Both the position numbers and the translations under genes were made by a program. The notes under the pieces were generated by a model. The model searched no databases. It saw nothing but the letters and a program-made list of their open reading frames with translations, and was not told the DNA's origin. Source: a virus. From it: 64,000 bases of DNA. The stretch lies in the IMG/VR virus record IMGVR_UViG_3300036406_001149; one strand, given 5' to 3'. Position 1 is the stretch's first letter; the number at the start of each line of letters is the position of its first letter. Below are positions 3,901 through 6,900 of this stretch, piece after piece.

Positions 3901-6900
3901 AGTTTGGAGATAGAACTAAAGTAGCAGCCGCTCTTAAAGGAGCAAAGCTTAGTTTATTAGGTAGAGAATTAGTTGGCATGGTTTCTAAAAAACCTGAATT
4001 ACTTAGTAGTCTAAGACTAATTACAGCTCGTCCATCATCAACATTAGACCTTGTTCATCAGTGGTTATCTTCTCAAGGATTACCTATTCCATTATCTCAA
4101 TTCAAGGGATTGGGAGGTCCAGGAGTTTCTGGTTCTCAAATAGCTAAACTTAAAGCGGAATTACTTAGTCCAGGATCAGTATTTGTTGATGATGATGTTA
4201 GAAATGTGAAAGCGGCCAAAGCTAGATCAACAGAAGGAATTACGTCATATAGGTATGGTAATAGAAAAAGTATAAAAAATACTAATGCTGATGCTACAGC
4301 CCAAGGAGTTATCTTTGAAAGAATGATCGAACAATTAGGAGGACCATCAGCTCTAAAAGGCCAAGGTTTAGATTTTCCTAATGGACTTAAGGGAGCAGCT
4401 AAATATTTTAATATACCAGGAAACATCCCCACTGATGCAAAAAGAACAATTAGTGGTCCATCAACAGTAGAGGATAATATTGTTACTTATCTTAAAAATG
4501 TTAAAGGATATAATCTTGGAGGAGTAGTTCAAAAATTTGCTTCTGGAGGCTTATCAAAACCTTTAGACACACTAGAAAGATACTACACAGACGCTACTCC
4601 AATTAATCTTGGTTTGTCTAATAGCAAATCATTAAATAAAGAGGACAGAAAACAATTAGCTTCAGATGTTAGAAATTTACGTAAACTTCGCACAGAAGCA
4701 CCAGAGGAATTATATACTTCAATATCTCGTAATGCATTTGATAAATTTGCTATGGATACTGGATTAAATAAAAATCCAGATATTCCACAAGGAACCAAAT
4801 TTAATGCTAAACAAGCATATTATGCTCCAGAAGTAGCTAAAATTATTGGTAAAACTTTTAGTCTTCCGGGATTCATTTCTACAAGTAAAAACTACGCAGT
4901 TGCCAAATCATTCTTAGATAATGCTCCAAGAGCAAAAGATAATTGGGCAGCTATGCTTACTGTAAAAACAAAAAAGAATGCTCAAGGAGTAGATGTTGCC
5001 GAACAATTAAAAGATCGTAAAATTAATGTAACCAAACAAGATATTAATCCAAGAACAGGCAAAACCGAAACGTTCTTCATGAAACAACCCAATGAAGAAA
5101 ACGAATTCATGCTTTCTCCTCGTTCTAAATTTAGAGTAAATACAGCAAAATACGTAGATTTAATGGGGAGACATAATCTTTGGGCTAATGTTCAGCAGTA
5201 TGCTACTGGAGGATCCGTTCAAGACACTGTTCCTGCTTTATTAACTCCGGGTGAGTTTGTAATTAATAAAAAAGCTGCTAGTAGTTTAGGATCTAGTAGA
5301 TTACATACTCTTAATAGAGCAGATAAAATTAAAGGATTTAACAAAGGAGGTCCGGTAGGAACCGTACAGAATTTCGCTGCTGGAGGTGCCGTACAAAGAT
5401 TTTTCTTTGGTGGTGGTCCAAGAGTTCCAGCTAGACCGGGAGCACAAGCTTCTTTTGAGAATTTACGCATTCCGGACGGCGTGGTAACAGGTCTTGGTCA
5501 GATGATAGATGCCCTAGAAGAATTAGGAGTTAGGTCTTCGGACTCAGCCAATATCTTGCGTAGAGGAGGACAAATTAGTGTAGAAGCTGCTACAAGAGCA
5601 TATGAAGCAGATATTTTAAGATTAAGAGTTTCTGGCGCACCAATGAGAACTGTTATAGAAGCTGAAACAAGACTTGCTAATATCAGACAGCAAGCAGCGG
5701 CTCAAGTCAGAGCTCAAAGACAATTAGCTGGAGTTAATGGTGGTCAATTAGAAACAATAGATTATGATGCACAGCAAAACTTACAAGCTATGATTCAAAG
5801 ACGTCAAGCAAGTGGTCGTGATCTTGATGATACTTTTATGAGACGAGCAGAAAGCGTTTCATATGGAAGAGCAGCTCAAAGAGCTGGATTATCACCAACA
5901 CAAACAGCAGGATTAAGCGGTAATGATCTTAGACAATATATTAATACTGCTATGGGAGATCCAAGAACATTTGAACAAATGAATAGAGCTTTTGAAACTA
6001 GAAGAAGAGCTGAATTAACAAGACAACTAACAGCAGAAGGTCGTTTCGGAGGTGATAGAAATAGAATTTTAGAAGAAGCCAGAAGAATGGCTCAACAAGA
6101 AGCAAGGATTCGTCGAGACACACTTAACGAAACTAGAGGAGCATCTGGTCCGGGTCGTACTGGAATAGGTTCTCAAGCTATGATGACAGGAGCTTTTGGT
6201 ATTCAAATGTTTGGGGGCATATTAGCACAAGGTATAGACAGGAAAAGTAGTGCAGAATCAGCCGGTCTTGCAGCAGGTTTAGAAACAGCCACAACCGGAT
6301 TAGGCACAGGATTAATGCTATATAGTCAATTGGATGAAATGTCTAAAGGATTATCTAACGTTAATACAACATTAGGCAGATTCGGGTCGGGATTAACAAG
6401 AGTTGCAGCTCGATTAACTGCTCTTGGAGCAGCTGCTTTTACGATTGTCTCGACCATTAAAGATGTTGTTAACGCAATGAATCAATTTGATATTGATCTA
6501 CAGAAACAAAAGCTTGAATTTAGTATGAAGGGAGTTGAGCAAGAATTTGAGAGATTAAGAAAAGCTGCAAATAATATAGGATTTGATAGACTAAACAGTG
6601 CTCTAGAATCTGCTTCGAAAGCTTTCGCTTCAGCTCTAGACAGAGTAAGTAAACAATCCACTATTACTTTTACTAATCTATTAGACTACATATATACCTC
6701 TATGCCATATTTTGGCACAGGAGATACTGAAGGATTTGATAAAAGATCTGAGATTGAGAGACTTGGTGGTAAAAAAGCTTATTATGCTTCTCGCAGCGAC
6801 GAAAGATCACTAGCTGATGAATATAAAAAAATTATACCACAACTTGCACAAGAACAAGCGGCTCTTGGTAAAGCTTTGTCAGATTCTTTACTTGAAAGCT

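Follow-up and report, generated by a model that had tools for sequence, protein, structure and literature searches.

Among the closest described phage counterparts of the element studied here are the ADP-ribosyltransferases (ARTs) Alt, ModA, and ModB of phage T4. Alt is a head protein, and ModA and ModB are expressed after infection. These enzymes are classic tools of host take-over and, to our knowledge, all known phage ARTs keep the R-S-ExE triad, composed of an arginine on strand 1, the serine of an STS motif, and an ExE motif. In the phage tail, the tape measure protein (TMP) occupies the lumen and is expelled first at infection, and the only enzymes that we know to occur within tape measures are cell-wall hydrolases. 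Fusions of an ART to a virion structural protein have been described as well: the MuF-VIP2 fusions of the Microbacterium phages Percival and Goodman are polymorphic MuF toxins that are presumably ejected with the DNA (PMC7302621). Here, we characterized an ART domain that is built in frame into a giant TMP and that combines the STS and ExE motifs with a strand 1 from which the arginine is missing, not only in this gene but in each of its known relatives. The domain is encoded in a 64,000-nucleotide stretch (the window, whose positions are used throughout) of the IMG/VR virus record IMGVR_UViG_3300036406_001149, which is 114.7 kb long and estimated to be 83% complete, with a G+C content of 29-38%. 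Domain residues are numbered from residue 1, which is amino acid (aa) 1213 of the TMP and starts at window position 4551.

The ART fold of the domain is supported by several kinds of comparison. The Pfam family PF03496 (ADPrib_exo_Tox) matched it above the curated gathering cut-off (29.4 vs. 23.4 bits, E 6.2e-7) over profile positions 22-186 of 196, and the same family was found with 28.6 bits in the genome search. An AlphaFold2 model built from an alignment with 16 relatives reached a mean predicted local distance difference test (pLDDT) score of 89.5 and a predicted template modeling (pTM) score of 0.83. When this model was used in Foldseek, 142 PDB chains were returned at E<=1e-3, with E 1e-8 for the ART fold. 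Among the top matches listed, nearly all were ARTs (C3larvin/Plx2A, Certhrax, VIP2, CDTa, iota Ia, C3bot, and Vis), the single exception being the VIP2-like domain of anthrax lethal factor, which is not catalytic. VIA-align superposed the model on residues 236-411 of iota Ia (4h0v_A) with a Z of 14.9 and a root-mean-square deviation of 3.1 over 165 aligned residues, gave Z values of 13-14.5 for CDTa, BECa, Vis, C3lim, C2-I, VIP2, and ExoS, and reached Z 12-15 with more than 40 solved ARTs over domain residues 1-216. In the BFVD viral structure library, the matches were MuF/portal-ART fusions, head-morphogenesis proteins, ModA, ModB, and Alt-like proteins, and a language-model look-up returned viral ADPrib_exo_Tox clusters. 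Sequence searches of the PDB with the domain alone, with a 4-sequence domain profile, or with a profile that included full-length relatives gave no ART match, so that only fold comparison ties the domain to solved ARTs. As judged from the Pfam match and the predicted structure, the domain is a C3/VIP2/iota-type ART in fold. An earlier interpretation made from the DNA letters alone (the sequence-only reading) had proposed a VIP2/Alt-like ART of the R-S-E clade, on the understanding that the predicted fold would be an ART split beta-sheet. The model indeed shows this ART split beta-sheet fold, with N-terminal helices.

The stretch from 4551 to 5200 is free of stop codons in frame 1 and yields the peptides quoted in the sequence-only reading. 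Rather than being a separate gene, it lies in frame within the open reading frame (ORF) at 915..18308, which on sequence evidence is a phage tail TMP, as the same reading had assumed. Besides the TMP core domain PF10145 (Table 1), matches to 14 PHROG tape-measure families cover aa 43-651, and relatives with the same N-terminus carry the JGI name "TP901 family phage tail tape measure protein." Given its in-frame position in a TMP, the ART is likely to be incorporated in the virion.

The STS and ExE motifs pointed out by the sequence-only reading are intact and conserved in the family, and its proposal that the catalytic arginine of strand 1 is replaced was also borne out. When the family was aligned with T4 ModB by hhalign, APEELYTSISRNA was paired with SPYQLYRGISKST (LYTSISR on LYRGISK), which places T56 on ModB R73 and R60 on ModB K77. 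The ExE strand was aligned in the same way with the ExE segment of T4 ModA. Conservation was assessed in an alignment of 21 sequences, comprising the window and 20 relatives with 45-85% identity. Position 56, the residue that the sequence-only reading had singled out for comparison among homologs, is Ser in 19 of these sequences, Asn in one, and Thr in the window itself. Because none of the 21 members has an Arg there, loss of the strand-1 Arg is ancestral to the whole clade and not a private lesion of this gene. The codon at position 56 is ACT (Thr) in the window and AGT (Ser) in the close relatives L002 and L003, and AGT is one transversion away from the AGR codons of Arg.

Apart from the strand-1 Arg, every pocket-type residue is kept. 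Invariant in the 21 sequences are S59, F63, the STS motif, R33, D123, N124, and R127, as well as F121, and both E183 and E185 are present in every sequence that extends that far. N19 may be the counterpart of N255 in the INNYLR motif of iota Ia. The sequence-only reading overlooked R60, which lies four residues past position 56 and is Arg in 20 of the 21 sequences. Its interpretation was right in kind, and the altered NAD binding that it listed as one option is better described as a displaced Arg, with a near-invariant R60 at +4 accompanied by the invariant R33, F121, and R127. The single sequence with Ser at position 60 is P0014 (3436 aa; ART at residues 579-790), in which an Arg occurs eight residues further on in the helix (SMARQ); it is possible that P0014 has undergone a second Arg shift or that it is an inactive copy.

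A different register was preferred when hhalign was run against T4 Alt and Salmonella SpvB, whose YR fell on the query loop 78-84. We rejected this register, since its hhalign probability was below 1%, the model has no strand at 78-84, and two relatives, P0016 and P0017, are devoid of residues 77-92. A further reason is the spacing to STS, which becomes 38 in P0016 and P0017 and falls in the range of solved ARTs. The Alt/SpvB register would put Q80 at the canonical Arg position, so there would be no Arg there either; on either alignment, the canonical strand-1 Arg is absent. By fold, the domain is a member of the ADPrib_exo_Tox family, yet it lacks one of the features that define the R-S-ExE triad, and we therefore do not file it as a canonical R-S-ExE member.

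The distribution of the domain is narrow. An exhaustive phmmer search over 1.84 billion representatives returned only 17 relatives at E<=1e-10, all within proteins of 835-5762 aa. Three further relatives, likewise of the TMP type, came from a word-indexed profile search, which found no stand-alone relatives of 117-378 aa. All relatives sit in tape-measure-type proteins of uncultured phages. DNA pattern scans of IMG/VR and the JGI metagenomes recovered only close relatives and one relative of 53% identity (L031), and a tblastn search of 50,697 sequenced phages with the ART domain found nothing. No copy of the domain was found in 185,579 prokaryote genomes, so there is no prophage and no clue to the host from this source. 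Within this set, the domain is under strong purifying selection: the Nei-Gojobori ratio of nonsynonymous to synonymous substitution (dN/dS) was 0.12, 0.15, and 0.10 for the three closest pairs, with dS of 0.66-0.99. Compared with relatives P0004 and P0005, identity is 81% in the ART, 58% in the N-terminal TMP core, and about 33% in the long helical remainder, so that the ART is the best-conserved block along the whole TMP. Good alignment in the shorter relatives is confined to the TMP core, the ART, and the linkers. Such conservation could reflect either strong constraint or exchange of a cassette between TMPs, and neither fits a decaying remnant.

NAD is a cytoplasmic compound, so enzymatic activity of the domain would require this part of the TMP to reach the cytoplasm and fold. 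We are inclined, without great assurance, to regard the domain as an active ExE-type ART that is delivered with the TMP and whose NAD-binding Arg has been displaced. On this reading, the domain would be folded and functional as a mono-ADP-ribosyltransferase while built in frame into the TMP. Since the TMP lies within the tail lumen and is expelled before the DNA, infection would carry the ART into the host cell, much as T4 Alt enters from the head; because the ART is located in the N-terminal, head-proximal quarter of the TMP, it would exit just before the DNA. Once inside, it would draw on cytoplasmic NAD+ for the ADP-ribosylation of a host target and thereby aid take-over. The domain is probably an enzyme that enters the host through the tail.

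With respect to mechanism, Tyr-Ser/Thr stands in place of the aromatic-Arg of strand 1 across the clade, leaving a non-canonical catalytic center in which binding of the NAD diphosphate may have passed to R60, aided by the invariant R33 and R127. In the solved toxins, Gln300 of Ia and Gln307 of CDTa hydrogen-bond NAD and lie 4-5 positions after the canonical Arg (PMC8001090); by analogy with these NAD contacts, we propose R60 as a candidate for the displaced NAD-binding Arg. In the pertussis S1 subunit, docking has placed Arg13 beside Arg9, near the adenine end of the NAD pocket (bioRxiv 10.1101/637801). Likewise, the segment from F121 to R127 may be analogous to the loop Arg of iota Ia (R352) and CDTa (R359; PMC8001090). 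The acceptor is most likely an Arg of a host protein, to judge from related enzymes, because the motif is ExE rather than QxE, and ExE is the mark of arginine-specific ARTs (PMC3102197).

Several points weigh against an active, displaced-Arg transferase. Wherever its role has been tested, the canonical Arg has proved essential. The R73A mutant of ModB is without ADP-ribosyltransferase activity (PMC10468400), and the aromatic-Arg295 of iota Ia is required for transfer (PMC10747272). One relative, P0014, has Ser in place of the proposed substitute. The hhalign probabilities against single T4 sequences were very low, as the templates are single sequences, so that the residue mapping rests on a short local match together with the secondary structure of the model and the 16-residue deletion in P0016 and P0017. 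Finally, to be active, a globular 24-kDa domain inside a TMP would have to refold and reach the cytoplasm.

A rival explanation is that the domain is a catalytically dead ART-fold module kept for a structural role, as a tail spacer or plug, or for binding a host protein. The canonical Arg is missing in all 21 members, loss of this Arg inactivates ModB (PMC10468400), and a precedent exists in anthrax lethal factor, whose non-catalytic VIP2-like domain is among the fold matches. STS and the catalytic Glu are, however, usually lost from ART folds that are dead, and in this family STS, ExE, and four more pocket-type residues are kept wherever they are covered, across 45-85% identity. The dN/dS of 0.10-0.15 and the higher conservation of the ART relative to the TMP core point the same way; they weaken the "inactive decoy" that the sequence-only reading had listed among its options, and we consider a dead module unlikely. 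The conservation pattern speaks most strongly against this explanation and does not distinguish a transferase from an NADase. An NAD+ glycohydrolase would bind and cleave NAD+ and transfer no ADP-ribose to protein, acting as an injected enzyme that depletes NAD or modulates an NAD signal. In iota Ia, NADase activity reportedly depends critically on the first Glu of ExE, and transfer on Arg295 and the second Glu (PMC10747272). Within the clade, rat ART2 acts only as an NADase (PMC3102197), and STS, ExE, and the loop Arg are intact in the family described here. In contrast, both Glu residues of ExE are conserved, including the one tied to arginine transfer, and depletion of NAD at infection would starve the phage too; we regard this explanation as rather improbable.

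It is also conceivable that the enzyme is an active ART that does not target a protein Arg but acts on a nucleic acid or a small molecule, or transfers NAD-capped RNA as T4 ModB does, and that the altered Arg arrangement reflects a different donor or acceptor. ModB attaches NAD-capped RNA to proteins (PMC10468400), no other T4 ART has a local match at the Arg motif, and a HAD-superfamily module that resembles the 3'-phosphatase of T4 Pnkp lies about 100 aa upstream of the ART. We give this possibility little credence, given that in the related pairs of R-S-E ARTs that have been reviewed only the ExE member modifies Arg, and that the ARTs listed with other targets, including the DNA-targeting pierisin, carry QxE (PMC3102197). 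Moreover, the adjacency of the HAD module and the ART is not constant, as several relatives have the ART directly after linker 1.

Table 1. Features of the TMP and its ART domain, in window positions.
Feature	Position	Strand	Basis or remark
Giant TMP ORF, 5797 aa	915..18308	+	Uninterrupted, no stop codon
PF10145 PhageMin_Tail, TMP core domain, aa 190-393	1482..2093	+	Pfam E 5.3e-22
HAD-superfamily phosphatase-like module, TMP aa ~965-1115	3807..4259	+	Predicted from AlphaFold2 and Foldseek; ~100 aa upstream of ART
ART catalytic domain, TMP aa 1213-1428	4551..5198	+	Pfam, AlphaFold2 model, Foldseek, VIA-align, language-model look-up
N19 of Y..IN..L helix motif	4605..4607	+	N in 19/21
R33, invariant Arg in helix 30-44	4647..4649	+	AlphaFold2 model and family alignment
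L54-Y55-T56-S57 (LYTS)	4710-4721	+	Within model strand 53-58 (ELYTSI)
T56, canonical strand-1 catalytic Arg position	4716..4718	+	Codon ACT; hhalign to ModB R73
R60, Arg at +4, first residue of helix 60-70	4728..4730	+	R in 20/21; aligns to ModB K77
S110-T111-S112 (STS)	4878..4886	+	Model strand 109-112; invariant 21/21; preceded by I109
F121-L-D-N-A-P-R127 segment after STS	4911..4931	+	At the place of the phosphate-nicotinamide loop; F121, D123, N124, R127 invariant
E183-N184-E185 (ExE), ADP-ribosylating toxin turn-turn (ARTT) loop	5097..5105	+	Ahead of strand 185-188; in all sequences reaching it
Linker copy 2 (YATGG...TPGEFV...), directly 3' of ART	5199..5414	+	Regex scan
PGEFV cores, aa (window start)	544 (2544), 1445 (5247), 2664 (8904), 3709 (12039)	+	Regex scan
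PGEFV cores, aa (window start)	4242 (13638), 4864 (15504), 5354 (16974), 5619 (17769)	+	Regex scan

Another feature of this TMP is its modular construction. A regex scan identified eight copies of a linker of about 60 aa with a PGEFV core (GG.IYA...GTDTVPAMLTPGEFVVNR...L..IN). The linkers divide the TMP into unrelated blocks, and the same linker is found in the relatives and in other PHROG TMP families; it may serve for cleavage, as a unit of folding, or as a joint for recombination. The ART is flanked by aromatic-x-x-G-G motifs, KFASGG before it and QYATGG after it. The HAD module upstream was blank in Pfam over aa ~965-1115, and its AlphaFold2 model has a pLDDT of mostly 83-95 over model residues 20-170. 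All of its top Foldseek matches in the PDB are HAD phosphatases, among them phosphoserine phosphatase PSPH (1nnl, E 3.9e-4) and AphA, and the matches also include the T4 Pnkp 3'-phosphatase (5uj0) and e(P4). Model confidence is low for the 97 residues that separate the HAD module from the ART. A PD-(D/E)xK nuclease at aa 1145-1190, just before the ART, was considered and found unsupported, the model having a pLDDT below 50 there. The position of the ART directly after linker 1 in several relatives indicates that modules are shuffled and that the HAD-ART pairing is not obligatory.

Further along the TMP, a candidate second ART of the His-Tyr type was noted at 14682-15410 (+). This region had no Pfam match even at E<=10, and a sub-threshold Atlas lead (0.89) pointed to ART-PolyVal (PF18760), present in 22% of one viral cluster. 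As a broader and more tentative idea, to which we attach clearly less confidence than to the active transferase itself, the family may be an ExE-ART clade in which the Arg has moved to the start of the next helix and which exists only as internal cargo of TMPs. Together with the HAD module and other linker-separated blocks, the ART would then be threaded through the tail and released as part of a multi-enzyme payload, the TMP being an effector-delivery polyprotein.

The TMP is followed by large ORFs on the same strand without Pfam matches. Seven of these lie 3' of the TMP at 18326-39758 (+) and measure 936, 453, 592, 1795, 2526, 635, and 183 aa; none had a Pfam match at E<=1e-3, and the first three (936, 453, and 592 aa) had no PHROG match either. 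The 936-aa ORF, the next tail gene after the TMP, had no tblastn match in the 50,697 sequenced phages. This phage lineage has an uncharted tail tip. Elsewhere in the window, the DNA polymerase is split into two ORFs at 49735-54045 (-): the ORF at 52171-54045 (-) covers positions 43-614 of phrog_405, and the ORF at 49735-51297 (-) covers positions 623-1072. A 230-aa ORF (51278-51970) sits between both parts. The split could be due to a mobile insertion, or the enzyme could be naturally split.

A family that is under strong purifying selection with the S and ExE elements and never the R provides a natural test of whether the strand-1 Arg is indispensable in ARTs, and of whether a neighboring Arg can substitute for it. 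In full-text literature searches, we found no paper on an ART, or on another NAD-using, cytoplasm-directed enzyme, in a tape measure. If the ART is active, then parts of the TMP must reach the cytoplasm in a foldable state, and the tail lumen would be a route of protein delivery.

Compared with known systems, the MuF-VIP2 fusions share with this locus a VIP2-type ART joined to a virion structural protein. Here, however, the carrier is a TMP rather than a MuF/portal protein, the ART is internal between repeated linkers rather than C-terminal, and the Arg motif is different; no MuF or head-morphogenesis domain was found among the Pfam matches on the whole TMP ORF. T4 Alt, ModA, and ModB are likewise phage R-S-ExE ARTs used in host take-over, and Alt is annotated as "carried in the phage particle." Local sequence matches link the domain to ModB at the Arg motif and to ModA at the ExE strand, and models of ModA and ModB were matched in BFVD. 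The T4 enzymes differ in that they have the canonical Arg (R73 in ModB) and are separate proteins, none of which is in a tape measure.

The clostridial and related toxins iota Ia, CDTa, C2-I, VIP2, and C3-like enzymes match the fold of the phage domain along its entire length (Z 14.9, 14.5, 13.3, 13.2, and 13.8, respectively). They share with it the helical N-terminal part with the IN motif, the STS strand, the loop after STS with Phe and Arg, and the ARTT loop with ExE. Identity to these toxins is at most 21%, and the phage domain is distinguished from them by two insertions (~aa 71-87 and 140-175) and by having no aromatic-Arg on strand 1. Unlike the toxins, it has no signal peptide, adaptor domain, or binding component and is embedded in a tail protein. 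According to Foldseek and VIA-align, the fold of the phage domain is nearer to C3 and iota than to cholera toxin. The cholera and pertussis group follows the pattern Y-R-x-D-S-R. A second Arg occurs four residues past the catalytic one in these toxins, as with Arg9 and Arg13 of pertussis S1 (bioRxiv 10.1101/637801). The equivalent in the phage domain is Y-T-S-I-S-R, in which only the +4 Arg has been kept.

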